Part shown: piece by piece, positions 6,780-64,000 of the stretch
Layout: each line of letters opens with the position of its first letter
Numbering within the stretch: position 1 is the stretch's first letter
Source of the DNA: Patescibacteria group bacterium
GTDB taxonomy: Bacteria; Patescibacteriota; UBA1384; UBA12157; JAENIV01
Direction: 5' to 3'
Length of the DNA stretch: 64,000 nt
NCBI GenBank assembly: GCA_041666185.1
Contig: JBAYHL010000001.1
Span: 2,421-66,420, forward strand
Notes under the pieces: model-generated
Seen by the model: only the letters and a program-made list of their open reading frames with translations
What the model was told of the DNA's origin: nothing
Database searches by the model: none
Position numbers and translations under genes: made by a program

Positions 6780-6837
6780 TATGAGTATTTTATACCTAAA
6801 TTACCTGAGAATCAACTGAGAATGGGTACAAAAAAAA

Positions 6838-7185
6838 CCTTAAGCAATCGATAAGCCAGGTTTTGTTTTGACAGCATCTATCTAAGCGTCGGAACTCCTT
6901 GGACGTCAGGTCGAGTAAACCTTTGATGATGAATGGAGCCCATCCGACTTGCACTATGCAGGGTTTGCCCCGCGCTATGTCGCCATAGGCACGCGTGCGC
7001 TCTTACCGCACGATTTCAACCTTACCCTTCGACTCCACGCTTGCGCGTTTCGCTCAGGGCGGTATGTTTCTGTTGCACTTTCCCTAGGGTCACCCCCGGT
7101 CGTATTTAAACGACTACAACACTCTATAGTGCCTGGACTTTCCTCCCCGATTTAACATCGGGGTAACTGCCTCGATTACTTAAGG
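6838..7185 (-). ncRNA. rnpB: RNase P RNA (bacterial type A)
   Basis: On the minus strand: P4 GGAGGAAAGUCCAGGCAC; AAGUGCAACAGAAACAUACCGCC; GGUAAGGUUGAAAUCGUGCGGUAAGAGCGCAC; 3' ACAAAACCUGGCUUAUCGAUUGC. These align with the E. coli M1 RNA conserved blocks, and a P1 helix forms between the ends. Local GC is elevated. Confidence 0.9.
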
Positions 7186-12644: not shown

Positions 12645-12708
12645 ATTTTTATTGTAACAAAAAAAGGACGTTTAGTTTCAAACCAAACGTCCTTCAAGTT
12701 AGTTCAGG

Positions 12709-15441: not shown

Positions 15442-15629
15442 GAGTCTTCCTCCTTTGTAAGATTGAGCAGGTCTTTCGACCCGCTCTTATGGCGGGTCGC
15501 TATTTAATTTTCAAGATACAAAAACAATTTTTTATTATAGCACTTTTTATACCTAATGTCAAGGTAAGATTGACAAAAATAACTTTTAAATTTATTATAA
15601 AAAGTCACGCTTGAAATCAAAGCAAAGGA

Positions 15630-15944
15630 GTGAAAACAGTTATGGCAAAAATAGAAGGAATTAGAACTGTTTTGCTTAGTAGTCTTGGCATTTGTGAACA
15701 CTGTCAAGAATTAATAACTATTTCCGATCTGCCAGCTGACGCCATGGACACTGATTGGCGCTGCCCAAAATGCAAAGGTATTTTAAACGGAGAATCCTTT
15801 GGTTATGAAGGTAAATCAAAACGGACCAAATGGGTCGGAAAAGATGGTAAATGGACCACTGACCAACCAGCTGAAAGTTTCTATCTTAAAAATTGGGAAG
15901 TAATTCCCAATATGCCCCCGCCACCATTTTTCTCCCGTTTATGA
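15630..15944 (+). CDS. small zinc-ribbon protein (CxxC...CxxC), hypothetical
   Basis: GGAG SD, CEHCQ and CPKCK pairs, Pro-rich tail. Confidence 0.55.
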   Translation: MKTVMAKIEGIRTVLLSSLGICEHCQELITISDLPADAMDTDWRCPKCKGILNGESFGYEGKSKRTKWVGKDGKWTTDQPAESFYLKNWEVIPNMPPPPFFSRL

Positions 15945-15963
15945 CCCCCTTTTTCCCATTTCA

Positions 15964-15995
15964 ACGGATGTTTAAACTAAAACATCCGTTTTTTT
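15964..15995 (+). terminator. rho-independent terminator
   Basis: CGGATGTTT-loop-AAACATCCG followed by T8. Confidence 0.7.
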
Positions 15996-16000
15996 TAAAA

Positions 16001-16033
16001 TAAAAAAACGGCAAGTGGTATTAGCACTTGCCC
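16001..16033 (-). terminator. rho-independent terminator for the uvrA transcript
   Basis: GGCAAGTG-loop-CACTTGCC followed by T7 on the minus strand. Confidence 0.65.
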
Positions 16034-16050
16034 TAAAAAGAACAAAAAAA

Positions 16051-16245
16051 TTAGTTTTCCCTATGTCTACCCAATTTCCGCCTTGGTTGCCTCGTAAGCC
16101 GTTCGGCCGCTTCTCGTAAAATTCCTCTTTCTCTAGTGTTAAGACGAATACGGTTTCTGGCCATTACTCGCAAAACATATCCTAAATCGTTATTAGACGT
16201 CTCTAATAACGGCCGACAGTATCTTGCCCTCATTACTAAGTTCAC
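16051..16245 (-). CDS. small Arg-rich hypothetical protein (64 aa), or structured 3'UTR RNA
   Basis: GGGGAGG SD 10 nt before the ATG; local GC is elevated; contains a 10-bp perfect hairpin (CGTTATTAGA-gacg-TCTAATAACG). Confidence 0.3.
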   Translation of the reverse strand: MNLVMRARYCRPLLETSNNDLGYVLRVMARNRIRLNTRERGILREAAERLTRQPRRKLGRHREN

Positions 16246-16261
16246 CTCCCCTTACAGAACT

Positions 16262-19063
16262 TTATAAAATCTCTTTGAGATACTTACCAGTGTAGGACTT
16301 GGCAACTTTCGCCACTTGCTCCGGTGTACCTTCAGCAACGATTTCACCACCACCTTCTCCACCTTCTGGACCTAAATCAATCACCCAGTCGGCTGATTTA
16401 ATAACATCAGTGTTGTGTTCAATAACAACAACTGTATTGCCTTTATCTACTAATGCCTGCAAAACAGACAAAAGTCTTTTAATATCTTCGAAGTGAAGAC
16501 CAGTTGTTGGCTCATCTAGAATATACAAAGTTCGACCAGTATCATGTCTGGCAAGTTCGGCCGCCAATTTGATACGTTGAGCCTCACCTCCGGATAAAGT
16601 ATTTGCTGGCTGACCCAAATGCATATAACCCAAACCAACTGATTCTAAAACCTTTAACTTATCGCAAATATCCGGAAAATCTTTAAAGAATTCCAAAGCA
16701 TCTTCAACCGTCATGGCCAAAACATCGGCGATTGTTTTACCACGATATGTAACTTCTAAAATTTCTGGGCTGTAACGTTTACCTTTACAATCTGGACAGG
16801 TCACATAAACATCTGGCAAAAAGTGCATTTCGATTTTTAGTACACCATCTCCTCGACAAGTCTCGCAACGACCACCACGAAGATTAAAAGAAAACTTTGA
16901 AGCGTCTAATTTCTTAGAAAGTGCTTCTGGTGTTGTCGCAAAAATATCTCGAATATGAGTGAATAAATTAGTATAAGTTGTTAAGTTAGATCGAGGTGTA
17001 CGGCCAATCGGTGATTGATCAACTGAAATAACTTTATCTAAAAACTTAGTTCCAGAAATTGCCTTGTGCTTGCCAATCTCTGCCTTAGCTCGATGAAATT
17101 TAACCGACAAAAAGTTAGCTAAAATATCTAAAATTAAAGTTGACTTACCACTACCCGAAACACCCGTAACACAAACAAAGTTGTTTAAAGGAATGCGAGC
17201 ATCAATATTTTTTAAGTTAAATTCTGAAGCACCCCTGACAATCAACTCTTCTTTTGTTTGTGGTCGTCTTTTTTTAGGAATTTCTATTTTCTTAGCCCCA
17301 GAAAGATACTGACCAGTTAGCGATTCGGGATTTTTCATTATTTGAGCTAACGTTCCTTCAGCGACAACTTTACCGCCATGATCACCTGCTCCTGGACCAA
17401 TATCAATCACCCAATCAGCTTTTTCGATTGTCAAAGGATCGTGTTCGACAACAATGACTGAATTACCAGCCTTTTTCAAAACATCAAATGTTTTCAAAAG
17501 TTTTTCCTGATCACGAGGATGAAGACCAATTGACGGTTCGTCTAAAACGTAAATCACCCCCATTAAACCTGTTCCTAACTGAGTTGCAAGTCTTATACGT
17601 TGAGCCTCACCTCCAGCAAGAGTTGAAGCGCTTCTGTCTAATGTTAAATAGCCTAAACCAACATCGAGTAAAAATTTCAAACGCTCGGAGATGCTAGCAA
17701 CAATTTTCGAAGCAATAAACTTCTCATTTTCGCTCAAATCACTTTGCATTAAATTCTTGTTAAAATATTCATGCAATTTTTCAATACTCATTGAAGCGAT
17801 ATCGATAATGTTTTTATCACCAATAGTAACATTTAAAACTTCTGAACGTAAACGCTTACCTTTACAATCAGGACAGATTTTTTCAACCATGTATTTCTCA
17901 ATTTCGTTCTTTAAATAATCCGAATCAGTTTCTTTGTAACGTCGCTGCAAATTAGGGATAACTCCTTCAAACCCGTTGTCGAGATTTTTATCACCATACA
18001 AAACAACTTGGCGAATCTTTTTTGGTAATTCGCCAATGGGGGTGTCTAAAGAGAACTTATGGCGACGGGCAATCTCTGAAAGAACTTTATTGTACCAATT
18101 AATGTGTGATGTAATTCGAGACCAAGGCCTAATCGCTCCTTCAGCTAAAGTCAATCTGGGATTTGGTAAAACTAATTCTGGATCAATTTCATAACGACGA
18201 CCTAAGCCCTGACAGGTAGGACAAGCACCTTGCGGAGAGTTAAATGAAAATATTTTAGGATGAAGTTCGTCAAGAGTTGTCTGGCATTTCGGACAGGTAA
18301 AATCTTTGGAATATTTTTTCTCTTTGTTCGAGTCGGCATCTTTAATAATCAAATTGCCATTGCCAAGTTTTAAAACCTTTTCAGCAATTTTAATAAGAAC
18401 CAGTAAAGGTAAAATATTTAAATCTTGACTAGTTTCTTCAACTAAAGCTTCAATAGTGTGAGGCTTTGATTTGTCTAAATTTAAGAGTTGGGCTTCAACA
18501 ATATCAACCAAAACACCATCAATTCGCACTTTAGTAATTTTTTGGTTTTTAAGCTGGCCGATTAGATATTTGTGTTCTCCTTTTTGATGTTTAACTTGAG
18601 GAGCAAAAAACATAAGATGTTTTAAGCCTTTGAATTCTTTTAAAATTTCCTGAACCATTTCTTCAGGCGACATTCGTTCAAACATTTTTCCACAAGTTGG
18701 ACAATGCGGATGACCAATTCTGGCAAATAGAACTCTTAAATAATCGTAAATTTCTGTGACCGTACCAACTGTTGAGCGAGGATTTTGAGAAGCGCTTCTT
18801 TGATCAATAGAAATTGCTGGGGAAAGATTTTCAATCCAATCAAAATCTGGCTTTTCTAGATTGCCAAAAAACTGTCTTGCATAAGTCGAAAGAGATTCGA
18901 CATAACGACGTTGTCCTTCAGCATAGATCGTATCAAAAGCCAAAGTTGATTTTCCGCTCCCGGAAAGACCGGTAATAACAACAATTTCATCCCGTGGGAT
19001 TTCTAAATTAATATTTTTTAAATTGTGCTCACGAGCACCATGAATAATGATTTTATCTCTCAT
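16262..19063 (-). CDS. uvrA: excinuclease ABC subunit A
   Basis: Two ABC modules ([18 protein letters not shown]), zinc-finger CxxC pairs, full length (933 aa). Confidence 0.95.
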
Positions 19064-31311: not shown

Positions 31312-34300
31312 ATGAACTTTATTTTTTGGAAAAAATCAAAGAGGACTAAAAAAGAAAAACCTGCCGCTGATCTATTATTACCAAAAGACAAGAAGGAAAT
31401 TGAAAAGCTTGCAGAAATGAAGTCGAAACACCTTGAAAGCGTCGAGGAGCTTAATCGTAAAATTACTACCATAGAAAGCTCTACCGAGACACTTGTGCCT
31501 AAATTTGGTCGTCTTCATCATTTACTTAGAGAAAAAATTGGTTGGTATCGTAATTGGCACACAAAACCATATACTCACAGTGTTCACTGGTTGGTTTTAT
31601 TACTTTATATTATCTCTCTTCCTATCGCCTATTTTTATCTTTCACCCTACGCATCAAGAACCAAAGCCATTACTTACGATTTTCCGAGATGGGAGCAAGT
31701 AAATCCAACCCCAACAGGCAATGACTTATTGAAGACCGCAGCTTGCTCTCAAGACGGTTCTGCTTGGACAGTTGGCGATGTTGGGACAATTTTTAGATCT
31801 TCTGCCACAGAAGACAATTGGGTCCGCCAATATACTAATACAGACAAGGATTTAAAAGATATTATTTGCATAGATCCAAGCAATATAATTGCAGTAGGTG
31901 CTTATGGCGATATTGTTCAATATAACGGTATTACTTGGACAACTAAAGCAAGTGGCACAACTAGTAATCTTTTTAATTTAGTTGCTCTTGATTCTACACA
32001 TATTATTGCAATTGGAAACTCTGGCGCTATAACTGTTTCCACTGATGCTGGTCAAACTTGGGAAGTTAAAACAAGTAGCACAACTGACAATCTTAGAAAT
32101 GCGGTTGCGTTTGATGCTACTCACACTCTTGCATTAGGAGTCTCTGGCCGTATTTTAATTTCTAATGATGCTGGTCAAACTTGGGAAGTTAAAACAAGTA
32201 GCACATCTGAAAATTTAAGAGGCGCAGCTATTCTTGATTCTACTCATGCAATTGCCGTAGGCGATAATGGAGCCATAACTGTTTCCACTGATATTGGTCA
32301 AACGTGGACGGCTAAAACAAGTGGAGATGGCAATCATTTTAACAGTGTGGTTGCTCTTGATTCCACTCATGCAATTGCCGTAAATTTTTTTGGAGGAATA
32401 GCTACCTCTTCTGATGCTGGACAGACATGGACACTTAAGACAAGTGGAACTGGCGATCATTTAATGAGTGTAACCGCCCTTGATTCTACCCATGCAATTA
32501 CGGTTGGTGATCATGGGACTGTATCTATCTCTTCTGATGCTGGACAGACATGGACACTTAAGACAAGTGGAACAACTAGTCTTCTAAGAAACGTAGCTAC
32601 TATTAGCTCCACTCGCGCGATTGCAGTAGGTGACTTTGGAGGCACGACTGTTTCTTCTAATGCTGGCCAAACATGGGTAACTAAGACAAGTGGCACAGTT
32701 GAAGAATTTTATGATGTTATCACCCTTGATTCCACTCATGCAATTGCGGTCGGAGTTGGTGGTTCTATTTTTCTCTCTTCTGATGCTGGTCAAACATGGA
32801 CAGCTAAAACAAGTGGAGTTTCAGCTCACCTTACTAGTGTAACTACTTTTGATTCTACTCATTTGGTTGCCGTAGGTTTTCCTGGAGGTTCCAAGACTAT
32901 TACTGTCTCTTCTGATGCTGGTCAAACATGGACAGCTAAAGAAACTGGGACTACCATTCTTGACGATGTAGCTGCTCTTAGTTCCGTTCGTGCTATCGCT
33001 GTTGGAATGACTAACGATGGACGTAGTGGCGCTGTCATGACTACCGCTGATGCTGGACAAACATGGACGACTAGGACAAGCGGAGCAACACAAACTCTTA
33101 AAGAGGTAGTTGCTCTTGATTCCACTCATGCAATTGCTGTTGGTAATTCTGGAACTATAATCGTCTCCACTAATGCAGGACAAACGTGGACAACTAAGGC
33201 AAGTGGAACAACACTGACTCTTCAGAAAGTAGTTGCTCTTGATTCCACTCATGCAATTGTGATCGGATCAAGTGGAACTATTATTGTCTCTTCTGATGCT
33301 GGTCAAACGTGGACAACTAAGGCAAGTGATACAACTAATCATTTAAATGGTATAACTGTTCTTGATTCCACTCATGCAATTGCAGCTGGAGCAAATGGAA
33401 CCATAACTGTCTCAGCTGATGCTGGTCAAACGTGGACGACTAAGGCAAGTGATACAACTAATCATTTGTTTGACATAAACTCTTTTAACGGTAACTACGT
33501 AATTGCGGTAGGTGATCTAGGGGGAATAACTGTCTCTTCTGATGCTGGTCAGACATGGACAAGCAAAGGAAGCGGAACAATCAATTTATTGCGTACTGCA
33601 TCCATTTTTGATGCCACCCATTCTACAGCAGTAGGTGATTTTGGTACCATTCTTCGTTATTATTCTCCTGCTAATGCGACTGCGACCAAACTTTTAATTA
33701 AGCTTCCCGGGCAATCTTTTGCTGATGGAGTAGGAGTAAGTGGTACACCTAACGCAGTTCAAGCAGGAGACCAAGTCACAGCAACTATTTACGCCGTTGA
33801 TGCTAACAATAATTTAGACAAAGGCAACGCTTCTTATGCTAGTTTTACTACCACTGATCCAAATGATAGTAACCCAGCCACTATTCAGCTTACTCAAGAC
33901 GGTACTTGTGTTCAAACCAATCGCCAACCAGGTGATCCAGAATGTGGCATTGGCACGGCTACTTTCCAATTTCATACAGCTGGCACTTGGACTATTAACA
34001 CTAATGACGCTTATGGTGTTCTTTCTTCTATAACATCATCAAGCGTTACCATCAACCCAGGAGACCCAGCAAAATTAGTTGTTTCAGGACTGCCTTCATC
34101 CCTTAATGCCGGGGCAGTTTCGGGAGCAGTAACCGTTAAAATTACCGATACATACGGTAACGAAACAACAACTGGTTCTAGCACAACCATCAACCTTTCA
34201 ACTACCAGTTCAAATGGAAAATTTGCTCAAAGTTCAAGTGGACCTTGGTCAGAAGAATCAAAAAATATTACCATTTCTGCTGGCAGCAGTTCAGCAACTT

Positions 34301-36162
34301 TTTACTATTATGATTTAAATGTTGGTACGCCAACTATTACAGCTTCAGAAACACCTTCTGCTGGTTGGGAAGACGATAGCGATATTTTAACTATTAATAC
34401 TGGAGCAATTTCCCAATCATCTTTAACGGTTGATAAAAATTCACTTGCTGCTGGCGAAAGTTTAACCGCCACCGTTACTTTAAAAAACAACGAGGGCACA
34501 GTATTACCAAGCAAATCAGTCCAATTATTTTCTTCTCGCAATACCAGCGAAACAACGACTGATAGCATTTCCCCTTCCAGCGCAACTACCGATTCAAACG
34601 GTGTCGCAAGTTTTACCGTTAGCTCAACCTCTATTGGTGACTTTATTCTTTCTGCCTATGACCAATCTGACAATCTCTATGTTGCTCAAGAACAAGGTGT
34701 CAGTGTAAGTATTGGAAATTTAGGAAAAATTGTTGTTGAAAGTAGTGCTTCAGAAGTACAACCAGGTTCACCTTTTGAAGTTACCGCAACCACGTACGAT
34801 AGCTACAACAATGTTAAAACAGATTTTACCGGCACACTTGAGTTTTCTTCATCCGACAGTTCAGTTAAATTTGTTGAAGCAAGCCACGCCCTTACTTCTA
34901 GTGAAAAAGGTAAATATACCCAATCTATTATTTTACAAGGAGAGGGTGAACAAAGCGTTCAAGTTACTGCTGACGGTATTTCCGGTATAGCCTATGTCAC
35001 TGTCACACCATCAGCAACACCAGCCGCTATTACTTCCCCAACGCCATCAGCAACCACTTCAACAATAATTACCACTCCATCGCCAACGGAGACTACCGCA
35101 AAACCTTTATCAGCCATAGAAGCCTTACAAGAATCACCAACATTACAAAAAATCGCTCAAGCCTTAACACCTGTTACTGCTACTGTTGCCACCCTAGGAA
35201 TCGTTCCTTTGTTGGTTCAAGCTTTTCCTCAAGGCTTTCAAGCATTAGCTTCACTATTTCCAGCAATTTTCACGGCTGCCGCCGTTAGACGCCGTCGCAA
35301 ACCATGGGGCATTGTCTACGACTCCATAACCGGCAAACCAGTTGACTTAGCAGTTGTAAGAGTCTTTAACGAGTCAAACGATAAATTAGTTGCCACTAAA
35401 GTTACTGATCAAAACGGTCGTTTTAACTTTTTACTTGCCAGAGGCAAATATTACGTCACTGTTACAAAAGCCGGTTATATTTTCCCACCAAAAATTTCTA
35501 AACTTAAAGCCTACCAACTTTCAACCAGATTTGGTCCACAAAGTGATATCTATTTTGGTCAACCATTTGTTATTGGTGCTGACGATACTAATGTCAACTT
35601 GAATATTGGCCTTGATCACAAAACACGCAACCTTTCCTTAGCTAACAAAACCATAATCTGGGTAAAAAATGGTCTTGATTGGTTCTTGATCGGACTCTCT
35701 TACTTTGCGGTTCCATTAATGATATTGGGAGCGATTTTTGCCAGTCTTGCTGTTGTGGTTGCACCTTCCACTTTCCACCTAGTCCTATCAGGATTCTACG
35801 TTTTACTACTTATTGCTTATCTTATCGGTAGTCGAATCCAAGCTGCTCGCATTGGAACTGTTTTTGATTCAATTTCTAAAAAACCAATTGCTAAAGCAAC
35901 TGTTTCGATTTTTGATAAAGAGTACAACGCTATTAGAGAAATTAAAACTACTGATCAAAATGGTCGTTTCGCCATTTTAGCCCAACGTGGACAATATTAT
36001 TTAACCGTTCAAGCTAAAGGTTATAAATTCCCATCTAAAGAATTTTCTTACCAAAAGAAGGATAAGAAATTAGGTCATATCTATCTTGGCGAAACTATCA
36101 ATAATAAAAAACCTGGTTTTGTTAGTGTTCATATTCCATTGGACAAAGAGGAAAAGAAATAA
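31312..36162 (+). CDS. giant surface protein (1616 aa): N-terminal TM anchor, about 18 Asp-box/BNR beta-propeller repeats, Ig-like domains, Thr/Pro linker, TM segments and two CarboxypepD_reg-like domains
   Basis: Repeated S-x-D-x-G-x-T-W (SSDAGQTWT) every ~44 aa; GAGGAGGGG SD before the ATG at 31312; hydrophobic helices near residues 95-115 and 1240-1275/1440-1480; two VxDxxTGKPxxxAxV...TDxNGRF modules. Confidence 0.8.
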   Translation: MNFIFWKKSKRTKKEKPAADLLLPKDKKEIEKLAEMKSKHLESVEELNRKITTIESSTETLVPKFGRLHHLLREKIGWYRNWHTKPYTHSVHWLVLLLYIISLPIAYFYLSPYASRTKAITYDFPRWEQVNPTPTGNDLLKTAACSQDGSAWTVGDVGTIFRSSATEDNWVRQYTNTDKDLKDIICIDPSNIIAVGAYGDIVQYNGITWTTKASGTTSNLFNLVALDSTHIIAIGNSGAITVSTDAGQTWEVKTSSTTDNLRNAVAFDATHTLALGVSGRILISNDAGQTWEVKTSSTSENLRGAAILDSTHAIAVGDNGAITVSTDIGQTWTAKTSGDGNHFNSVVALDSTHAIAVNFFGGIATSSDAGQTWTLKTSGTGDHLMSVTALDSTHAITVGDHGTVSISSDAGQTWTLKTSGTTSLLRNVATISSTRAIAVGDFGGTTVSSNAGQTWVTKTSGTVEEFYDVITLDSTHAIAVGVGGSIFLSSDAGQTWTAKTSGVSAHLTSVTTFDSTHLVAVGFPGGSKTITVSSDAGQTWTAKETGTTILDDVAALSSVRAIAVGMTNDGRSGAVMTTADAGQTWTTRTSGATQTLKEVVALDSTHAIAVGNSGTIIVSTNAGQTWTTKASGTTLTLQKVVALDSTHAIVIGSSGTIIVSSDAGQTWTTKASDTTNHLNGITVLDSTHAIAAGANGTITVSADAGQTWTTKASDTTNHLFDINSFNGNYVIAVGDLGGITVSSDAGQTWTSKGSGTINLLRTASIFDATHSTAVGDFGTILRYYSPANATATKLLIKLPGQSFADGVGVSGTPNAVQAGDQVTATIYAVDANNNLDKGNASYASFTTTDPNDSNPATIQLTQDGTCVQTNRQPGDPECGIGTATFQFHTAGTWTINTNDAYGVLSSITSSSVTINPGDPAKLVVSGLPSSLNAGAVSGAVTVKITDTYGNETTTGSSTTINLSTTSSNGKFAQSSSGPWSEESKNITISAGSSSATFYYYDLNVGTPTITASETPSAGWEDDSDILTINTGAISQSSLTVDKNSLAAGESLTATVTLKNNEGTVLPSKSVQLFSSRNTSETTTDSISPSSATTDSNGVASFTVSSTSIGDFILSAYDQSDNLYVAQEQGVSVSIGNLGKIVVESSASEVQPGSPFEVTATTYDSYNNVKTDFTGTLEFSSSDSSVKFVEASHALTSSEKGKYTQSIILQGEGEQSVQVTADGISGIAYVTVTPSATPAAITSPTPSATTSTIITTPSPTETTAKPLSAIEALQESPTLQKIAQALTPVTATVATLGIVPLLVQAFPQGFQALASLFPAIFTAAAVRRRRKPWGIVYDSITGKPVDLAVVRVFNESNDKLVATKVTDQNGRFNFLLARGKYYVTVTKAGYIFPPKISKLKAYQLSTRFGPQSDIYFGQPFVIGADDTNVNLNIGLDHKTRNLSLANKTIIWVKNGLDWFLIGLSYFAVPLMILGAIFASLAVVVAPSTFHLVLSGFYVLLLIAYLIGSRIQAARIGTVFDSISKKPIAKATVSIFDKEYNAIREIKTTDQNGRFAILAQRGQYYLTVQAKGYKFPSKEFSYQKKDKKLGHIYLGETINNKKPGFVSVHIPLDKEEKK
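31900..33620 (+). repeat. intragenic tandem DNA repeats (~132-bp unit, more than 12 copies, high identity) encoding the BNR blades
   Basis: Recurring ...tctgatgctggtcaaac(a/g)tggac... blocks at a 132-bp period. Confidence 0.8.
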
Positions 36163-49778: not shown

Positions 49779-50093
49779 TGGTGGAGCTGGGGGAAATTGC
49801 ATCCCCGTCCAAAAAAAGATCTAACAATCATTGACAAGTGTAAATTTTGCCTTTGTTTTCTTAATTTTACCTACTAAGACAACCTTGGTAAAAAGCAAGT
49901 TGATTTGTCATGCCCGATTCCAACCATTCAACTAACAATTGGGCGGACAGCGTTTAGCCTCGCGTTATGCTAAGGCTAGCGCAGGTGTATAAGCTGATTT
50001 GTTGCTTATTTTTTGCGACAAAATCTACGAGCTTATGTCGCCAGCTCGACTTGAAATTGTTTTTCTCTTTTCCTGTCGAATCTATACAGCCCC
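49779..50093 (-). ncRNA. ssrA: tmRNA (transfer-messenger RNA)
   Basis: Minus-strand 5' GGGGCUGUAUAGAUUCGACAGG and 3' GGACGGGGAUGCAAUUUCCCCCAGCUCCACCA match the tRNA-like domain. The acceptor is identical to E. coli (G3-U70). An internal frame ends ...GCU UAU ACA CCU GCG CUA GCC UUA GCA UAA (tag ending PALALA). Confidence 0.85.
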
Positions 50094-55262: not shown

Positions 55263-55345
55263 ATATTTTAGTTGCCTTGGAATAGCTTAGCTTTCCTCAA
55301 GCGCAAGTTTGAGACAAGCTACATCTAACACAAGGAGTGTGTACA

Positions 55346-56347
55346 TTGAAAAAAGCAGGTTTCCTCTCGGTAGTTCTGGTCGTTTTCTTGTCTCTCGTGG
55401 TGGCTTTTGCCGCCAACGCCGCACAGCTTTACAACGCTATCGACCTGGGTTTTAACCCCAGGGCCATCAACAACCAAGGGGTTGTCGGTGGCACCCGATT
55501 GGTGATTAATGATGATTCAAGCTTCTTTGAAGCCGTTACATGGAAGAAAGGTGTGATCACCTCTTTAGGCACTTTTGGCGGCGGAGCCGCCGGCGTCTGC
55601 GACATTAACGATCGAGGAACGCTCCTTATTAATGTCGACCCCGGTAACGGAGCCATGGGTGACTGGACTTATTTAGTCATCCAACCGAATGGCCAGCAAG
55701 ACGAGATTAAGGGAATGGTTGGTGAAGATTATGTATATCTTCTTCGTCTGAACAACCTTAATCAGGCAGTTGGCTACTTAAGCTCGCGCACAGGAAGCCA
55801 AAAAGGTTTCATTTGGAGCCAACAGGCGCAAATAACCATCAAGATGGACGGCCGTTGTTGGCTCGAAGCCATTAACGATGCTGGTCAAGCAGTTGGTTAT
55901 GGCAGCCAAGACATTTACAGTGCACCGTCACCGATGATTTGGACGAATAGCAGCATGTGGGCATTGGACACACCAAGTGGCACCGGCGGAGTTCACGACA
56001 TCAACAACTCCGGCTGGAGCGTTGGTTCGTACGGTACCAGTGATTCCTCTGCTTTCCACCCCGCCTTCTGGACAGATGACGGATGCCTCCTCAAGTTGAA
56101 AGACTTGGGAGGATTACCGGGTTTCGCCGCAAAGATAAACAAAAGAGGCGAGATCATTGGTTTTCTTGATGGCAAGCCGGCAATATGGCAAACACCAAAA
56201 GCCAAGCCGATTTTCCTATCAGATGTCGTCAAGAATCTCAAGATTCTTGACACTATGGACATCAACGATTTAGGACAAATAATTACCGAGGCCGAAAGGC
56301 CTAACGGCACGCACGGGTACTTTTTACTCACGCGCCGTAATCGATAA
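55346..56347 (+). CDS. secreted HAF-family extracellular repeat protein (TTG start), GC-atypical
   Basis: Signal peptide MKKAGFLSVVLVVFLSLVVAFAANA; repeated AINNQGVVGG / DINDRG / AINDAGQAVGY / DINNSGWSVGSY...AFHPAFW units match the HAF repeat pattern; GC visibly higher than the window. Confidence 0.65.
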   Translation: MKKAGFLSVVLVVFLSLVVAFAANAAQLYNAIDLGFNPRAINNQGVVGGTRLVINDDSSFFEAVTWKKGVITSLGTFGGGAAGVCDINDRGTLLINVDPGNGAMGDWTYLVIQPNGQQDEIKGMVGEDYVYLLRLNNLNQAVGYLSSRTGSQKGFIWSQQAQITIKMDGRCWLEAINDAGQAVGYGSQDIYSAPSPMIWTNSSMWALDTPSGTGGVHDINNSGWSVGSYGTSDSSAFHPAFWTDDGCLLKLKDLGGLPGFAAKINKRGEIIGFLDGKPAIWQTPKAKPIFLSDVVKNLKILDTMDINDLGQIITEAERPNGTHGYFLLTRRNR

Positions 56348-57468: not shown

Positions 57469-57544
57469 TGGTGCCCTCGGCAGGAGTTGAACCTGTAACC
57501 TCTTCCTTAGGACGGAATCGCTCTATCCATTGAGCTACGAGGGC
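57469..57544 (-). tRNA. tRNA-Arg (anticodon CCU), CCA encoded
   Basis: Minus strand: GCCCUCG acceptor, anticodon loop GUCCUAA, T-loop GUUCAACUC. Confidence 0.75.
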
Positions 57545-59197
57545 TTATCTCATATAGATTTTATCACATTTGTAAGATATAATAAAAAGGATTTCGGGGT
57601 GTAGCGCAGCCCGGTAGCGCGCATCGTTCGGGACGATGAGGTCGGAAGTTCGAATCTTCTCACCCCGACCAAGAGTGACAGTTTCAGGTTTTATATTCAA
57701 AATGCTCTTATAGCACGGATTAATTTCGGTGTTCAAATACCCGGGATAGTTCCAGACCAATCCTGATGGGAATATTGAACACAAGAGCATTCTCTTCTGT
57801 TGTAAGTCTGAATTTTGATAAGTATTCGCCAAGTTTTTGAACTTTTCGCGAATAAAAACTGTCACATCTTCAATATTATACTTTGTGATTAAATCGTCAT
57901 CTTTCGCTATTTGGATTGTGGCGATTTTTTGTTCCAAAATCCTATTTTGTTCTTTGAATATGTCATCGGAATAAATACCAGCCAGATTTTTCTCAATTAA
58001 GGCCTGGCGGGTTTCATAGAGCTTTTTAAGCTCATCATCAGCCTGTTCTCGCCTTTTTTGTAGTGTTGCGACCCTGTGATAATAAGTTTTTCGCAGATAA
58101 GTTCCTGTTAACTCCAGAGCTTTATCAGTCATACTAACACTATCAAGAAGATTTGTTGTTGCTTCTTCTAATTCATCCATAGGCACAGAATGGCCTTTGC
58201 CACACCATTTTTGACAAAAGTAATAAGCATACCTCTGCATTTTTCCTTTGCTCCAGCCAGCCGTCAGAGATGACCCGCAACCGCTGCATTTAACAATTCG
58301 GCGTAGCGGAAAATCTTCGTTATCACGATTTTTCTTAGCGAATGGTTTGGCAATATTAACATTTCGTCCATCTAAAATGGCCTGTATACGATAGAATTGT
58401 TCTTCGGTCACCATTGGCGTATGCTGCCCCTGGACTTCTTGCTTATATTTTTTGGACACCAATTTTCCTGTATAGAACTTATTGCGGAACATTCGCTGGA
58501 TTGTTTGCGCCTTAACCTTGAATTCTCTACCCGTTCGATACTTAACTTTTATACCCTTCTCATCCATGATCTTTGCCATCTCTCGTAGTGATTTGGTTCC
58601 CGTCGCCATAAGCTCCCATGCTTCTTTTAATTTATCGAAAGCCTTGGGGTCTTTGGTCACATAGCCGTTTTCATTTAAATAGCCCAACGGGGCCAAACTC
58701 GAAGGAAGCCCCGAAAGGAACCGAGCTCGCAATCCATTCTTGGCTCGTTCTCCTCGCACATCATTATCCATCTGGGCAAAACCAGCCAGCATCGTTTCAA
58801 CAAACTTTTCAGTCGGACTATTGCCTGTTGGCTCCGAAGCTGAAATCAAACTAATCTCACTCTCGGCCAACTTTTTGCGAATTACCAAATAGTCAGCAGT
58901 TTGACGGGAAATACGATCTAGTCGATAGACTATGACCGCCCCGACTTCTTTCTTGTGTTTTCGGCAATATTCAAGCATTTGTAAAAGTACCGGACGACCA
59001 GAAATAGTTTTTGCCGATCGGCCTTCTTCGCGGAAAATCTGGTCGACCGTTAGCTTTCTTCTAGTGGCCTCTTTTGTGCAGATATCTTCCTGCGTTGCGA
59101 GAGAATAATTTTCAATTTGCTCTTCGCTAGAAACGCGAATATACATTACCGCATGTTCGGTTTTGTTCGGTTTTTGGCTAAAAAAAGATTGGTTCAT
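57545..59197 (-). CDS. large serine recombinase (resolvase catalytic domain + recombinase domain + zinc ribbon/coiled-coil)
   Basis: [12 protein letters not shown] catalytic Ser motif, RLDRISR, Cys-rich CSGCGS...CQKWC; the ORF reads antisense through tRNA-Pro before its stop. Confidence 0.85.
57595..57671 (+). tRNA. tRNA-Pro (anticodon CGG), CCA encoded
   Basis: CGGGGUG acceptor, anticodon stem CAUCG/CGAUG with loop UUCGGGA, T-loop GUUCGAAUC. Confidence 0.8.
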
Positions 59198-59458
59198 TTA
59201 TCCCTCCCTCAATAACTCTTCTAGAGTTAAACTATTAAATGTTTGTTTCTCGTACTCATCCAGCCAGCTATCCAATAGATATTGGAATTGAGTAATATAG
59301 ACGGCTAACTCTTCATCCTGTATATCTTTAACTATTTCTCCCAAAACTGCCCGAGCTTTCTGCACTTTGTTTTCTTCCGGTGATTCAGGGAAGATGTAAA
59401 AAGAATTCTCCAAAGTCTTAAACTTTACCCCTTCCATTGGTTGTAGAACATTATTCAT
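59198..59458 (-). CDS. small acidic hypothetical protein (86 aa) immediately upstream of the recombinase
   Basis: Tightly coupled (stop/start adjacent); GGAGGGCG SD. Confidence 0.45.
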   Translation of the reverse strand: MNNVLQPMEGVKFKTLENSFYIFPESPEENKVQKARAVLGEIVKDIQDEELAVYITQFQYLLDSWLDEYEKQTFNSLTLEELLREG

Positions 59459-59470
59459 ACGCCCTCCTAA

Positions 59471-59510
59471 CTAGTATTATATACCTAGTATACTAGGTAT
59501 ATAATACTAG
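59471..59510. repeat. 40-bp perfect palindrome CTAGTATTATATACCTAGTA|TACTAGGTATATAATACTAG
   Basis: Exact dyad symmetry; contains TATAAT-like hexamers; lies between the recombinase module and the T4SS module. Confidence 0.9.
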
Positions 59511-59596
59511 TGTCAAGAGAGTAATTAAACCTGTTGTTAGTAATTTATTGAACACCAAAAAGACTTTTCCACAGGTTAAAGTTTATAAAATGAAAA

Positions 59597-60262
59597 TCAG
59601 CTTTGAGAATTTATGATTTGTTGCGGAGGGTTTGCGGGTGGATCGCCTGTTAAGAATACTCTCGGATTAACAGGTATCCCGAAGACTTTTATTTCGAAGT
59701 GTAAATGAGGGCCGGTTGACCAACCTGTATTGCCTCTAGCGCCTATAATAGTGCCAACTACAACCTCATCTCCCTCCTGCACTGCGATACTATCCAAATG
59801 AGCATAGATTGATGTTATATGATGTCCATTGTCGATTTCTACATGTTTGCCAAATCCCCAAGAAGTTTCTCCGGCATAAATAACTTTACCAGCCATAAAA
59901 GCGCCGACAGGGTCGCCGACTTCGTGATTTGGGCTGGCAATATCAATGCCGGTATGGAACGGGTCGTAGGGCAAAAAGACTTGCCCGAATTCAAGAGTAA
60001 CCGGCCCGTTTATAGGCCACATAACAGAAGTTTCTACATGATCAATAATAGCTCCAGTGGCGGGGTCGTGAATATCCACCTGAGTCGTTTGAGGATCGTT
60101 TGATACCAGAACCCCTGAAACTGCGTCTATTCCGACTTGGGTTAACATAAATACCGCTATCACAGGCAGTAGACATACGGCTATGAGAGTTAAGAATATG
60201 ATTTTAATCTCCTGCTTCATGGAGAAAGCAAGAGCGATGTATCGTATTGCAGTCACGTTCAT
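59597..60262 (-). CDS. M23 family peptidase (LytM), membrane anchored; likely T4SS-associated cell-wall hydrolase
   Basis: HTGIDIA...HLHFEI motifs; N-terminal TM. Confidence 0.8.
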   Translation of the reverse strand: MNVTAIRYIALAFSMKQEIKIIFLTLIAVCLLPVIAVFMLTQVGIDAVSGVLVSNDPQTTQVDIHDPATGAIIDHVETSVMWPINGPVTLEFGQVFLPYDPFHTGIDIASPNHEVGDPVGAFMAGKVIYAGETSWGFGKHVEIDNGHHITSIYAHLDSIAVQEGDEVVVGTIIGARGNTGWSTGPHLHFEIKVFGIPVNPRVFLTGDPPANPPQQIINSQS

Positions 60263-62046
60263 TATTTCACCCTAGCTAATTCCGCTGGGTCAGTAGTAAT
60301 AAGCGGATGCTCGTTTTCCGAGGCAGTTACTTTAACTGCGACATGGTGCTGGTCGGCGATTATTAAAGCTTCGCCCCGCTCGCAGGTCAATAAAAACTTT
60401 TGTTCATATTCGCTTAGCTTAAATTCCGAGGCCACTTTGTTGATTGTAGTGGTATCTTGCCTCATTAAGATTCTTAGGGCGCTTTGAGAAGCGATCGCTT
60501 GCCCATAGGCATTTTGTAGGAAATCATTTGCTTGCTGAGAGATGATAGACACTCCCAAGTAATACTTTCGAGCTCGTCTAACTAATCCGGCGATAAATCG
60601 GGCACTTTCTTCATGTTCAAGCAAAAGCCATGCTTCATCAATAATCAATAAGCGTTTTTGCATGAATGCTTTTACTTGGTTTTGGACGAATTGGGCGATG
60701 ACCAAATGCATCAGCTGGCGAAGCGACTCGGGCAAATCTTTAGTATCGAAAACCACCAACCTATTATCCAGTTCCAAATTAGTCTGGGAATTAAATACTT
60801 CCGCTAATGAGCCGGTGGTGTATTTTTCCAATCTTCGGCAAAGCTTTGTCTGTTTCAACGATTTAAGTGTCATATAGAAATCGTATAGAAGAGGATAAAT
60901 TTGAGTTTCTCTTTTCTTTGGTTTTTTAGATGACCAGCCGAACTTCTTATAAGTTTGTAATATTGCTTGGTCAACAACTGATTTTTCTTCGGCAGATAAT
61001 CCCTCTGCCATTAGAGAAATTATTTCTGTTAAAGATTGAACATGGTCGGAAAAACTATCCGGCTCGGTGAAGGCATTGACTGATAGATCAAACGGATTTA
61101 TTTTTTCATCAGAATGAACAGAGAGCTTAATATATGTGCCCTTGACCGATTCGGCTAATCTTCGATATTCCCGTTCAGGATCGATCACTAAAATTTTTGT
61201 GCCTTGCATTAAATGGCGCAGAATTTCCACTTTGGCGGTGTAGCTTTTGCCGGCTCCTGATTGGGCGAATAAAATACTGTTGGCATTAGGCAAAGCAAAT
61301 CTGTCCACTATAACAAGAGAGTTATTTGAGCGGTTGATTCCATATAAAATGCCCGATTCCTGGACATATTCAGAGGAGATGAAAGGAAAAGTCATGGCTG
61401 CCGATGAACTGTCTAAGTTTCTCTTTTGAGCCAGTTGGTTATCTCCGCGAGGCAAGACCGACTGCAAACCCTCCAACTGCTGATACATTGCGGTTTTAGT
61501 ATAAAATAGTCTGGTCGCCAATACTGTTTCGAGCAATTTCGTTACTTTGTCTAAGTCGATAAGATTGTCAGCTGCCAGGGCGATGTAGAGCGAAACTTGG
61601 AAGAGATTTTCCTGCCCTCGCTGGATTTTATCCCGCAGTTCGATGGCCGAGTCCAGCGGATCGGTCAGTTCGGAGCCGACAATTTTGCCATCCCTCTCCA
61701 TCGCTCTTTTAGTGGAAATGAGTTCAGTGATTTTACGATTAAGTTTTGGCAGAGCTAAAGTGGCGTCGACCGGCTCGATATGATAGGAAATATCGACATT
61801 ATGGTTGAAGTTAATTAAATGGTTAAGCCAGCCGCTAGAAGCGGTGTAGGGATAGCCCGAAACGAAAAGAGTTCTTAAATATCTTCCGTCAATCACGATA
61901 TGATCGCTTTCTTCCTGAAGTCCAGAGTAAGTTATGAAATCCAACTGGTCTTGCTCGCCGAATTGAAAATTCAGCACTTTCTGCCTTTCGAGCTTTTTAT
62001 CCTTCTTTTTGGGCTTGGTTTTTACTTTAGAAAAAATTTTGTTCAT
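60262..62046 (-). CDS. VirB4/TrbE/PrgJ-family conjugative ATPase (ATPase portion)
   Basis: Walker A SGAGKS, Walker B IIDEAWLLL, arginine-finger region RRARKYYLGVSIISQQ. Confidence 0.8.
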   Translation of the reverse strand: MNKIFSKVKTKPKKKDKKLERQKVLNFQFGEQDQLDFITYSGLQEESDHIVIDGRYLRTLFVSGYPYTASSGWLNHLINFNHNVDISYHIEPVDATLALPKLNRKITELISTKRAMERDGKIVGSELTDPLDSAIELRDKIQRGQENLFQVSLYIALAADNLIDLDKVTKLLETVLATRLFYTKTAMYQQLEGLQSVLPRGDNQLAQKRNLDSSSAAMTFPFISSEYVQESGILYGINRSNNSLVIVDRFALPNANSILFAQSGAGKSYTAKVEILRHLMQGTKILVIDPEREYRRLAESVKGTYIKLSVHSDEKINPFDLSVNAFTEPDSFSDHVQSLTEIISLMAEGLSAEEKSVVDQAILQTYKKFGWSSKKPKKRETQIYPLLYDFYMTLKSLKQTKLCRRLEKYTTGSLAEVFNSQTNLELDNRLVVFDTKDLPESLRQLMHLVIAQFVQNQVKAFMQKRLLIIDEAWLLLEHEESARFIAGLVRRARKYYLGVSIISQQANDFLQNAYGQAIASQSALRILMRQDTTTINKVASEFKLSEYEQKFLLTCERGEALIIADQHHVAVKVTASENEHPLITTDPAELARVK

Positions 62047-62647
62047 TTGTTTGCCTCGCTATTGCCTGAGCAAGCGGCTGAGTTTTGGCTTGATCGGGCT
62101 TATAAAAGCTATAAAATAGGTCTAATATCTCCAAGCCGGTGATTTGCCTTGCCGACATGCCGATTTTCTCCATGCCCTTGATGATTATCTCCTGCTCAAG
62201 AAGCAAATGCTCTTTGGCGATATAAAATTCACTGGCCGTCTTATTGTTATAGGGAATTACGACATAAAATTTTCTGGATAAAATCTTATTGCCGGAGATC
62301 AGTTTTCTAATGAATTTGCTGTAATTCTTCATTTGCTCCAAATAAATTTCTTCGGTTTCATCCGAGCAGGATTCCTGGATATTTTCCAAATACTTTTCGA
62401 TATCCAACTCTCTAATGCGAATCAATATTTGCAATGGAATTGTTAAGGAGTTTAGGAATGATTGAAAATTGTCGATTAAAACATCCTGTTCTTCTTCGCT
62501 TTGCAATTCGAAGTTTAAGGACGACACCGACAAGATCGAACGATAACTGTTGTCTGACAGAACCAAGATATTGTCTCTGATTTCTTTTATTCCGATCTGG
62601 CTTCTGGCCGAGCCCTTATTCTTCGCTTGCTGCAACTGAAACATCAA
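62027..62647 (-). CDS. VirB4 N-terminal (CagE_TrbE_VirB-like) domain as a separate ORF
   Basis: IRDNILVLSDNSYRSILSVSSLNFELQSEEEQ...FLNSLTIPLQIL matches the VirB4 N-domain pattern; 20-nt overlap with the ATPase ORF. Confidence 0.55.
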   Translation of the reverse strand: MMFQLQQAKNKGSARSQIGIKEIRDNILVLSDNSYRSILSVSSLNFELQSEEEQDVLIDNFQSFLNSLTIPLQILIRIRELDIEKYLENIQESCSDETEEIYLEQMKNYSKFIRKLISGNKILSRKFYVVIPYNNKTASEFYIAKEHLLLEQEIIIKGMEKIGMSARQITGLEILDLFYSFYKPDQAKTQPLAQAIARQTNEQNFF

Positions 62648-63128
62648 TGCCTCCTTTCTTGGCCAGGCCGAAGCGGAAATTAAGCGATGGGTTGCCCAGC
62701 AGCCTGTCGATTTTGACCTGGTCTTCTAGTGAAACAGCATATCTCAATTTTTTCTCTTGCTTTGTTTCTTTGACGACAGTTTTCTTCCTTTCTTCAGTGA
62801 AAGCGATAGCTTCTCCTGCTCGGCTGGCTAAATCATTTTTAGTAAAAATGTATATTCTCGGTCTTAGCTTGAAGCGAAGTAGAATAACCAGCCAATCTAT
62901 TAGAATTTTCCCTTTAATTCGGATAGCCAAAGTGCCGAAAACCAGAAATTGCAGGCCGATTAGAATTAGTTTAATTAAACTGAAACGCGAACTCGGCGGG
63001 ATTAAGACATAAACCGCTGTGCTTGTAATGAGAGGTATAACCAGCATAATAATTTGCGTAAATGTCAGATTGCCGGCGATTCGGTCTTCAACCGTTGTTA
63101 TCTGTGCCGGTACGACTGTTGTTTTCAT
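62616..63128 (-). CDS. VirB3/PrgI-like small membrane protein
   Basis: Two TM helices near the N-terminus; position immediately upstream of VirB4. Confidence 0.45.
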   Translation of the reverse strand: MKTTVVPAQITTVEDRIAGNLTFTQIIMLVIPLITSTAVYVLIPPSSRFSLIKLILIGLQFLVFGTLAIRIKGKILIDWLVILLRFKLRPRIYIFTKNDLASRAGEAIAFTEERKKTVVKETKQEKKLRYAVSLEDQVKIDRLLGNPSLNFRFGLAKKGGIDVSVAASEE

Positions 63129-63997
63129 TTTACCCTCGCAGTCTGTTTAATTGTTTGATGAGTGGCAACTTTTGATACAGTATTGCCGCCTGGGCTTAAA
63201 ACATTTAATATTTGTGAACCGAACTTTCTAAACATTCCGCTATTTTGCGATGTTAGAACCAACTGAATCATCGTCGAGCTGCTTTTGAGAAGCACTGAAA
63301 AGAGAGCAATTCCGACTAAAGCGGCGATAAACGGGTTGGAGCCCTCCTGGCCTGGAATAGTTAGAAAAGCTGAGGCCAGCTGAATTAACACGACATGAAC
63401 GAATAAAGTAAATATCATCACCAAGTATGCTTTAGCGGCGCTTTCGGCAAAGCCGGTCGCCTTAGGAATGAGCCACAAAAGGCAAAGGATTGGTGAAATG
63501 ACCGCTCCGAAAGCAAGAATCATCAATCGGCTAATGTAGAAGAGAAGAAGCACGACCGCCAGCACAATGAATATGACAAGGAATATCAGGGTAATGAGCG
63601 CAGTCGTTCCGCTTAATAATGCTGCAGGATCAAAAGCATTCAAAATCCACGCCTGTCCCAATCCGCCCGTCGCACCAAGCACAGCATGTATCAAAACTTG
63701 GCAGAGCTTGATAAACCAATCGATCAAGAAGATTGAGGTATTAGCTAGTAAGAAGGATAAGCCGATCTTCGGCAGAAGTTCCTTTAAGGACAGTTCTTCA
63801 AATCCGAATGAAGAAGCGCTCATAACATGGAATCCTAAAAGGGCGATTACCAGAACATAGAGCGAATCGGTTATTCCGACTATGATCAGCCAGAAATTAA
63901 ATACCACTGAATTGGTTGCCAGTGTCGGCGTATTGGTTAAAAATCCCATAATGCCGTCCATTATTGGTTTAGTGGCTGATTGGACGATATTTTTCAA
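63125..63997 (-). CDS. VirB6/TrbL/PrgH-like polytopic membrane protein (start near window edge, possibly incomplete)
   Basis: At least six hydrophobic helices; upstream of VirB3/VirB4 as in Gram-positive T4SS loci. Confidence 0.5.
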   Translation of the reverse strand: MKNIVQSATKPIMDGIMGFLTNTPTLATNSVVFNFWLIIVGITDSLYVLVIALLGFHVMSASSFGFEELSLKELLPKIGLSFLLANTSIFLIDWFIKLCQVLIHAVLGATGGLGQAWILNAFDPAALLSGTTALITLIFLVIFIVLAVVLLLFYISRLMILAFGAVISPILCLLWLIPKATGFAESAAKAYLVMIFTLFVHVVLIQLASAFLTIPGQEGSNPFIAALVGIALFSVLLKSSSTMIQLVLTSQNSGMFRKFGSQILNVLSPGGNTVSKVATHQTIKQTARVK

Positions 63998-64000
63998 GAA

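Follow-up and report, generated by a model that had tools for sequence, protein, structure and literature searches.

The stretch analyzed here, referred to as the window, covers 64,000 nucleotides of a contig from a Patescibacteria group bacterium (GenBank assembly GCA_041666185.1, contig JBAYHL010000001.1). Its right end contains a gene for a large serine recombinase (LSR) that adjoins a tRNA-Pro gene, followed by genes for a type IV secretion system (T4SS), and the subject of this study is the mobile element to which these genes may belong. The locus could be followed beyond the window on a 70.7-kb ENA contig, which differed from the window at 1 base in 9,037 and extended 12.4 kb past it. 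Two Logan contigs from a second sequencing run, SRR6484324, were 100% identical to the ENA contig. The ENA-contig locus is referred to as L004 and is numbered in the orientation of the window, with the window coordinate being the L004 coordinate + 54,963. The following features were identified at the right end of the window.

57469-57544, minus strand: tRNA-Arg(CCT), found by ARAGORN and Rfam, abutting the stop codon of the recombinase open reading frame (ORF) and divergent from tRNA-Pro
57595-57671, plus strand: tRNA-Pro(CGG), found by ARAGORN and by the Rfam tRNA model (63.7 bits), intact and with the CCA end encoded
57672-57700, no strand assigned: element side of the left junction, from the first base after the CCA, beginning AGAGTGACAGTTTCAGG
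57545-59197, minus strand: LSR of 550 amino acids, with the Pfam domains Resolvase (E = 2.6e-30), Recombinase (E = 1e-12), and Zn_ribbon_recom (E = 7e-7), all above the Pfam cut-offs
59198-59458, minus strand: ORF of 86 amino acids, here called orf86, the stop codon of which directly abuts the start codon of the LSR
59470-59511, no strand assigned: perfect palindrome of 42 bp, with arms at 59470-59490 and 59491-59511 that are 100% complementary and have no spacer
59597-60262, minus strand: M23 peptidase (Pfam PF01551, E = 4e-28), with the HxxxD and HxH motifs intact
60262-62046, minus strand: C-terminal two-thirds of a VirB4 ATPase, 594 amino acids (NCBIfam conju_CD1110, 356.7 bits against a cut-off of 325, profile positions 185-735)
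62027-62647, minus strand: TrsD-like protein of 206 amino acids, equal to the N-terminal third of VirB4 (conju_CD1110 positions 8-175; TrsD; PF26593 TraC-like)
62616-63128, minus strand: PrgI or VirB3-like membrane protein (Pfam PF12666, 34.8 bits against a cut-off of 27)
63125-64000, minus strand: VirB6-like polytopic membrane protein having a pilin-like domain at the N-terminus; the gene runs past the window end, and the full protein has 428 amino acids (L004 8162-9448)

An earlier note on this DNA had placed the recombinase beside tRNA-Pro and described it as reading through the tRNA, and both the three Pfam domains and the reading frame bear this out. The native part of the protein consists of residues 1-508 (57674-59197), while residues 509-550 are the antisense translation of the complete tRNA-Pro and of a 50-nt spacer, with the stop codon set against tRNA-Arg. 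The ORF contains no stop codon inside the element before the tRNA is reached, and the LSR gene is the outermost gene of the element. The motif YIRVSSEEQ was present, and the RVSS catalytic motif, as read from the sequence, was intact. Sequence matches in the PDB were obtained to the A118 integrase, the TP901-1 integrase, and the 9dxh entry for a site-specific recombinase ("Resolvase homolog YokA"), all of them distant, with E-values of 1e-5 to 6e-9. The junction with tRNA-Pro has a consensus, CCCCGACCA followed by A(A/G)(A/T)GTGACAG, that is common to the four relatives that target tRNA-Pro (the window, L024/L025, L023, and L021). We propose that tRNA-Pro(CGG) forms the B arm, on the host side, of the left attachment (att) junction, attL, and that positions 57672-57700 may be the P' arm and serve as an att half-site.

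The native 508 residues matched more than 1,000 proteins at E < 1e-10, with the best 120 being 59% to 90% identical. Source names are sparse in this family, the few named members including Saccharibacteria and candidate division CPR2. The family members are 495 to 581 amino acids long, and the variation is confined to the C-terminus, where a conserved end, ...PGY(L/S)NTxISPxYxxIxxxxxxxVxxG, is followed by tails of the form G-x3-5-(I/T/S)-R-T-..., often then ...LYPLSY.... To judge from the peptides, these tails are antisense translations of tRNA T-arm and D-arm sequences. Among the best 120 matches, a script recognized 48 full tails resembling antisense tRNA and another 19 that were cut inside the signature by contig ends. 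Reading the remainder by eye added about 18 full and 6 cut tails, for a total of about 90 of the 120, and the other proteins either ended ahead of the junction (22) or had unrelated tails (about 5).

In this family the LSR genes reach exactly to the CCA end of a tRNA gene, a position that was read on DNA at five junctions and was deduced from the peptide tails elsewhere. Besides the window, with Pro(CGG), these junctions are found in L024/L025, also at Pro(CGG), where the LSR is 77% identical and is accompanied by a T4SS, a coupling protein, and a relaxase; in L023, at Pro(TGG), where the LSR is again 77% identical and is accompanied by a T4SS, and where a Pro(CGG) gene located 5 kb away is unoccupied; and in L021, at Pro(TGG), where the LSR is 84% identical and is accompanied by a relaxase-like gene without a T4SS. 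The fifth junction belongs to a second recombinase in L021, the ORF of which ends in tRNA-Glu(TTC). In members at least 72% identical to the window LSR, all tails begin with G-R-(G/S), which is antisense to ...CCGACCA, the acceptor end of tRNA-Pro. The tails differ in the remoter subclades, and target choice thus tracks the recombinase phylogeny, as would be expected of true site-specific integrases.

The transfer operon points toward the LSR and encodes, in order, a VirB2 pilin, the VirB6-like protein, PrgI/VirB3, TrsD, VirB4, and the M23 peptidase, with the TrbC/VirB2 pilin located past the window end (41.5 bits against a cut-off of 27.9). The ORFs and profile matches agree with the earlier description of the 86-aa ORF, an M23 hydrolase, a split VirB4, and VirB3- and VirB6-like proteins, all on the minus strand, and the VirB4 assignment held when checked against the equivalog cut-off of conju_CD1110. 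The 206-aa ORF and the 594-aa ATPase cover complementary parts of this profile, and so the split VirB4 corresponds to a TrsD and VirB4 pair. The VirB4 protein contains the Walker A motif GAGKS and the Walker B motif IIDEAW, and matched Pfam P-loop_TraG and AAA_10. The VirB6-like protein matched T4SS_pilin at 31.7 bits (cut-off 26.6) and TrbL_4 at 19.4 bits, which is below the cut-off of 27. The gene for the M23 peptidase follows the VirB4 gene in all relatives, and its product is predicted to be the cell-wall hydrolase of the transfer apparatus, in the role of VirB1.

Any coupling protein or relaxase had been expected to lie beyond the window, and a divergent operon located 1 to 4.5 kb beyond the window end encodes both a coupling protein of 864 amino acids and a Replic_Relax protein of 262 amino acids. 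The coupling protein is VirD4-like and matched DUF8128, DUF87 (31.6 bits against a cut-off of 23.2), and TrwB_AAD_bind (24.9 against 20.5), with TraG-D_C just below the cut-off. It has more than 1,000 homologues, of which the few with a source name are from the candidate phyla radiation (CPR)/Patescibacteria and some are annotated as T4SS DNA-binding proteins. The Walker A and B motifs were intact in both ATPases, VirB4 and the coupling protein. The relaxase matched Replic_Relax (PF13814, 46.7 bits against a cut-off of 25.3) and also the PHROG category "replication initiation by nicking". Its MOBC type was assigned by profile, PF13814 being the MobC relaxase family of CONJscan (PMC5357655). 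With the pilin, the coupling protein, and the relaxase outside the window counted, the T4SS module claimed in the earlier note stands, and its description as minimal does not.

Relatives of the host were examined for the presence of the element at the same site. In L016, L017, and L019, in which the neighboring AI-2E transporter is 63% to 69% identical, the tRNA-Arg(CCT)/tRNA-Pro(CGG) pair is kept and the element is absent. Only housekeeping genes were found downstream of tRNA-Pro, namely a DUF296-like gene, HU, and RNase Y in L017 and the AI-2E transporter in L019, with no match to the element proteins. What these relatives show is that the presence of the element varies, and not that a clean empty site exists. 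L025 and L023 were considered as an occupied and empty pair from the same species and rejected, since they represent different organisms with tRNAs that are only 85% identical.

Relatives of the element itself provide stronger evidence of insertion than the empty-site contigs. In GCA_030647355.1 (L006), the same transfer block is located at tRNA-Ala(GGC), with amino acid identities of 88% for VirB4, 78% for VirB6, 71% for the coupling protein, and 91% for the relaxase. The block adjoins the acetate kinase gene, and both the flanks and the cargo differ from those of the window element. The L006 recombinase is only 26% identical to the window LSR, and its ORF likewise reads antisense into tRNA-Ala(GGC). 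The first 30 nt (k-1) of the Logan contig of the tRNA-Ala element are exactly the final 30 nt of the tRNA. Logan assemblies are built with k = 31. A contig that starts with exactly k-1 nt of the tRNA 3' end therefore indicates that the assembly graph branches precisely after the CCA.

Several features of the related loci were also noted. In L016 (~6880-7117, minus strand), two additional fragments of tRNA 3' ends, each consisting of T-arm, acceptor, and CCA, lie within ~250 nt downstream of tRNA-Pro(CGG). They resemble scars left by earlier integrations, probably of a different, tyrosine-integrase type of element. The tRNA-Pro(CGG) gene appears to be an insertion hot spot. The cargo of L006 (15334-22631) is defence-like, with a LexA/S24 repressor, a ubiquitin-like system of Multi_ubiq, ThiF, and BubE, a 938-aa SMC-like ATPase, and an HpaII restriction enzyme with its methylase. 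L021 (1-11603) contains two elements in one tRNA operon, in the order Pro-element-Gly-Lys-Glu-element, and each serine recombinase ORF ends inside the upstream tRNA. The ~9.6-kb element of L021 has no T4SS and encodes a Replic_Relax-like protein, a 1334-aa radical-SAM/aminotransferase fusion, an AAA and HNH pair, and a helix-turn-helix protein, and in gene content it resembles a mobilisable element. In L008/L009 (2481-4264, 8802-9895), VirB4 is split into ORFs of 467 and 129 amino acids, and a group II intron-type reverse transcriptase (two ORFs) lies between the genes for the pilin and the coupling protein. L008 also contains a second DUF3768 pair and hairpin 5.5 kb further on, and these features are signs of decay and of tandem remnants.

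The claim that the G+C content of the region is above background was confirmed, with a value of 0.415 for the element compared with 0.359 for the host side, and the tetranucleotide deviation agrees. The tetranucleotide distance to the host was 0.25 to 0.31 for the element, compared with 0.146 +/- 0.029 (maximum 0.221) for 6-kb windows of the host, which is 3.7 to 5.7 standard deviations above. The composition of the element is foreign. The ENA contig stops 5 codons short of the end of a gene for an AAA protein, 18.7 kb from the tRNA. Both the G+C content and the tetranucleotide deviation stay high up to this point, and so the far end lies further out.

Outside the element, the window regions 12001-17000 and 32001-36000 had a G+C content of 0.40 to 0.43 and a raised tetranucleotide distance of 0.20 to 0.22, and may represent either core operons without rRNA genes or further islands. 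The window also holds the genes for RNase P RNA (6837-7182) and tmRNA (49779-50093). An ORF of 336 amino acids (55337-56347) between HU and the AI-2E transporter has a hydrophobic start and a G+C content of 0.45 to 0.51, well above that of the host. A tblastn search with this ORF gave zero matches in six related contigs, and it may be another acquired gene beside the tRNA pair.

The earlier note had suggested that a direct repeat of the tRNA-Pro 3' end would mark the other att site. This did not prove to be the case within the 19 kb available: a blastn-short search with a 320-nt tRNA region against 21.5 kb of L004 gave nothing longer than 13 nt. A repeat of the tRNA 3' end was likewise not found for tRNA-Ala in L006, nor for tRNA-Pro(TGG) in L021. 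Such a repeat is a signature of tyrosine integrases, and because the recombinase is of the serine type none is expected here. The element in L021 is bounded by tRNA-Gly and tRNA-Pro(TGG), which are ~9.6 kb apart, and both of its ends must lie in this locus. There is no copy of a tRNA 3' end inside it, and therefore integration duplicates no tRNA fragment. The crossover would take place at the CCA end or immediately past it, in keeping with the short crossover that serine recombinases use. Beside the presumed distal end in L021, only a 6-nt match, TGGTCG, was seen, which is suggestive, with the probability of a chance match estimated at ~1 in 20.

The palindrome upstream of orf86 is perfect, as had been noted before, and its length is 42 bp rather than 40 bp. 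By simple arithmetic, a palindrome of this length in 64 kb is far beyond chance, and the folding z-score as single-stranded DNA was -7.7. It holds four CTAGTA/TACTAG boxes and overlaps a strong sigma-70-like promoter on the minus strand, TTGACA (59516-59511), 18 nt, and TATACT (59492-59487), with 11 of 12 consensus matches. The -10 element TATACT lies inside the palindrome, which ends 5 nt ahead of the GGAGGG ribosome-binding site of orf86. In 7 elements an inverted repeat occupies the same position, with a sequence that varies according to the recombinase clade. Palindromes of the window type, with one to few changes, precede the orf86-LSR pair in L021, L022, L023, and L024, and one of these elements lacks a T4SS. 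In the tRNA-Ala clade, a different inverted repeat is located here, and neither the -35 element nor the ribosome-binding site varies.

The location of the palindrome on the promoter of the orf86-LSR pair and its retention with the LSR clade, also where a T4SS is lacking, therefore favor its role as an operator, and it is best read as the putative operator of the integration and excision module. The alternative that it represents an origin of transfer (oriT) or a part of the T4SS was rejected, as the repeat travels with the orf86-LSR pair even in the element without a T4SS. An ORF at the position of orf86 precedes the LSR gene in every relative looked at, and orf86 itself is conserved with this LSR clade. 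It had no match in Pfam, NCBIfam, or PHROG, and an AlphaFold2 single-sequence model (pLDDT 72.5) gave no fold match. As a guess, it could be a directionality factor, a regulator, or a repressor.

After the relaxase gene, the element contains a small membrane ORF, DUF3768, a conserved non-coding hairpin, and variable cargo. The non-coding segment of ~145 nt (L004 14310-14456, window-equivalent ~69273-69419) is located directly upstream of DUF3768 and was also found in L005, L006, L008 (twice), L011, and L025. It is highly conserved, and beyond its distal end the elements lose all similarity to one another. Its fold is a long imperfect hairpin of 40 pairs, 6 of which have compensatory changes, with z-scores of -7.6 and -5.2 as single-stranded DNA, and it had no match in Rfam. 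Candidate roles are those of an oriT, of a single-strand (Frpo-like) promoter driving a leading-region gene, and of a 5' untranslated-region RNA. Just past the stop codon of the coupling-protein gene there is a perfect 14-nt inverted repeat, AAATTCTGTGTACA/TGTACACAGAATTT (L004 12594-12625, window-equivalent 67557-67588). Its position is kept in relatives and its sequence is changed, and it may act as a terminator or else be a candidate for oriT.

The cargo genes encode a short-chain dehydrogenase, an acyl-carrier-like protein, a CobT-like VWA protein, and a MoxR-like AAA ATPase. A search of the cargo for defence systems with PADLOC found nothing except for one weak match, of the AAA protein to mad8 (E = 3.6e-05, 21.4 bits). 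The copies of the AAA protein in the ENA contig (L004 21350-21454) and in NCBI (P0241) are identical at 693 of 705 residues, with all 12 differences located in residues 672-702. An AAA paralogue in a relative (L026 11900-14906) has the same variable C-terminal motif, with a bAvd gene just downstream. The tail of the AAA protein thus bears the signature of a putative target of a diversity-generating retroelement, which probably explains why contigs break at the AAA gene.

A complete set of conjugation genes on one contig, variable presence at the site, the same block at other tRNAs, the family of LSR-tRNA junctions, and the foreign composition all argue that the locus is the left end of an integrative and conjugative element (ICE) of a Patescibacteria (CPR) bacterium, inserted directly after the CCA of tRNA-Pro(CGG). 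We put the probability of this reading at about three in four. The earlier note had offered an ICE and a T4SS for host interaction or DNA uptake as two options, and the evidence supports the former: a relaxase and a coupling protein are present, and relatives do not share the block at this locus. Host interaction may be an added role of the same machine.

Several observations weigh against the element being an ICE. Among the ORFs between the LSR and the relaxase, sequence profiles gave no family match to a VirB8-like (PrgL/TcpC) component. The far end with attR was not reached within 18.7 kb from the tRNA, and the relative L026, which runs ~2.8 kb past the equivalent point, ends at the retroelement region. 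In L021, a search for an attP dyad gave no convincing P/P' pair, the best inverted match to the P' arm (18/30) and the direct match (scoring 10) both being at chance level. No oriT was identified, and the candidate hairpin past the coupling-protein gene could be no more than a terminator. The relatives with an empty site are related only at the genus or family level, with the local gene order partly rearranged, and no strictly syntenic empty site was found. Lastly, the gene order pilin-VirB6-PrgI-TrsD-VirB4-peptidase is canonical for the T4SS of Patescibacteria, which have been argued to be mostly non-conjugative (PMC12102498).

This gene order, together with a far end that was not reached within 18.7 kb and an excision that is only predicted, would also suit a chromosomal T4SS that has been domesticated for an epibiotic lifestyle, for contact or for DNA or protein exchange with the host bacterium, and that merely lies beside a recombinase and is immobile as a unit. 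We consider this unlikely, however, given the adjacent genes for a coupling protein and a MOBC relaxase, an arrangement that the same survey found to be rare, and the recombinase located at the boundary. Furthermore, relatives lack the block at this tRNA, it recurs elsewhere beside other tRNAs with exchanged recombinases and cargo, and its composition is foreign. Marginally less likely still is a decayed or immobilised remnant of an ICE that was once mobile and is now fixed. The failure to find attR within 18.7 kb would fit such a remnant, as would the decay seen in the relative L008/L009, with its broken VirB4 and group II intron reverse transcriptase. In the window element, however, all ORFs are intact, the catalytic motifs are present, the independent datasets are identical, and the promoter and operator are perfect. 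A prophage or phage-plasmid with an integrase located by chance near T4SS genes was rejected as very improbable: LSRs are typical phage integrases and the CobT/CobS-like VWA and AAA genes match phage PHROGs, but virion genes (capsid, portal, terminase, or tail) are lacking in the 19 kb examined, the backbone consists of a conjugation module, and scans of IMG/VR with the LSR, VirB4, and the junction sequence gave no matches.

For an ICE with this gene content, excision, the position of the crossover, the function of the operator, oriT, and transfer can be predicted from sequence as follows. A protein bound to the palindrome would keep orf86 and the LSR gene off. On induction, the LSR, possibly with orf86 as a directionality factor, would recombine attL with attR, so that a circle is released and the tRNA is left intact. 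The MOBC relaxase would then nick oriT, and the coupling protein would feed the strand to the channel formed by VirB4/TrsD, PrgI, and VirB6, with the M23 peptidase opening the wall and the pilins making contact. In the recipient, the LSR would insert the element beside tRNA-Pro, the 3' end of which (acceptor strand and T-arm) would provide one half-site of attB.

From the scarcity of relaxases and of coupling proteins near virB4, the only survey of the whole phylum concluded that the widespread T4SS of the ultra-small Patescibacteria mostly do not serve in conjugation (PMC12102498), and this locus is a compact and intact case in which a relaxase, a coupling protein, an integrase, and a defined site occur together. 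The close relatives of the element at other tRNAs make it a concrete system that can be tested. A broader proposal, on which we lean neither way, is that a CPR-wide family of LSRs is dedicated to tRNA 3' ends, with genes that end at the CCA and targets that switch between subclades, and that self-transmissible ICEs, along with related mobilisable elements, use these LSRs and carry the T4SS of the Patescibacteria type at least in a part of the phylum. If this is true, more than 1,000 serine integrases that all abut tRNA 3' ends would change the picture in which tRNA genes are the classic target of tyrosine integrases and serine integrases are not known to use them. It would also provide natural orthogonal integrases with conserved and predictable targets for genetics in uncultivated lineages.

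A survey of T4SS in Patescibacteria described a clade related to MPF-FATA with VirB2-like pilins (Quinonero-Coronel et al. 2025, PMC12102498). In that survey, a coupling protein was located near virB4 in 148 of 5,713 cases, and 109 relaxases were found in all (58 of them MOBC), of which 15 were near virB4. The T4SS was reported to be essential for epibiotic growth of Ca. S. epibionticum ML1, and the survey contains no mention of integrases, recombinases, or tRNAs (PMC12102498). The element described here has the same parts in the same order as this clade, with VirB2-like pilin(s), VirB6, PrgI/VirB3, TrsD, and VirB4, and a peptidase downstream of VirB4. It differs by the addition of a linked coupling protein, a MOBC relaxase, and a boundary recombinase at a tRNA. 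It belongs to the minority in the survey with a coupling protein and a relaxase, to which it adds an integration module and a target site.

The element also resembles the MPF-FATA ICEs of Firmicutes that use serine recombinases (CTn2/Tn5397-type), in that the VirB4 protein passes the CD1110 threshold, the LSR gene is outermost, the structure is modular, and the coupling protein weakly matches CD1115. By the definition of MPF-FATA, a VirB4 of the FATA subfamily with a separate TrsD was found, whereas a VirB2-type pilin, which should be absent, is present, as in the Patescibacteria clade. In contrast to the Firmicutes ICEs, the element has VirB2-type pilins, an M23 peptidase instead of a CHAP/SLT hydrolase, and a relaxase of the MOBC type. 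Moreover, it is located beside a tRNA and not inside a protein-coding gene, where serine-recombinase elements have been reported (PMC5704250).

In its position directly downstream of an intact tRNA, with a tRNA-proximal integrase and target switches along the integrase tree, the element is similar to the tRNA islands of tyrosine integrases (Islander/TIGER). Here, however, the recombinase is of the serine type, and a displaced tRNA 3' fragment was found neither in 19 kb of L004 nor in the bounded element of L021. The authors of Islander stated that serine integrases were not known to use tRNA genes. We found no earlier report of LSRs that target tRNA genes in the literature checked, the coverage of which did not extend to subscription journals. 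The window LSR has the same catalytic, recombinase, and zinc-ribbon domains as the characterised large serine integrases A118, TP901-1, and YokA (9dxh), with only distant similarity to them, and differs in that its reading frame extends to the very edge of the element, where host tRNA sequence completes it. A small serine recombinase of the filamentous phage phiRSM reportedly integrates at the 3' end of a tRNA gene. That enzyme is said to be a small resolvase-type protein of a Ralstonia inovirus with a 13-nt core, and not an LSR of a conjugative element. The work on phiRSM is that of Askora et al. (2011), to which PMC7192596 refers. An ICE is in itself a known kind of element, and what is new here is a probable ICE in Patescibacteria with a serine integrase that appears to be specific for a tRNA end.

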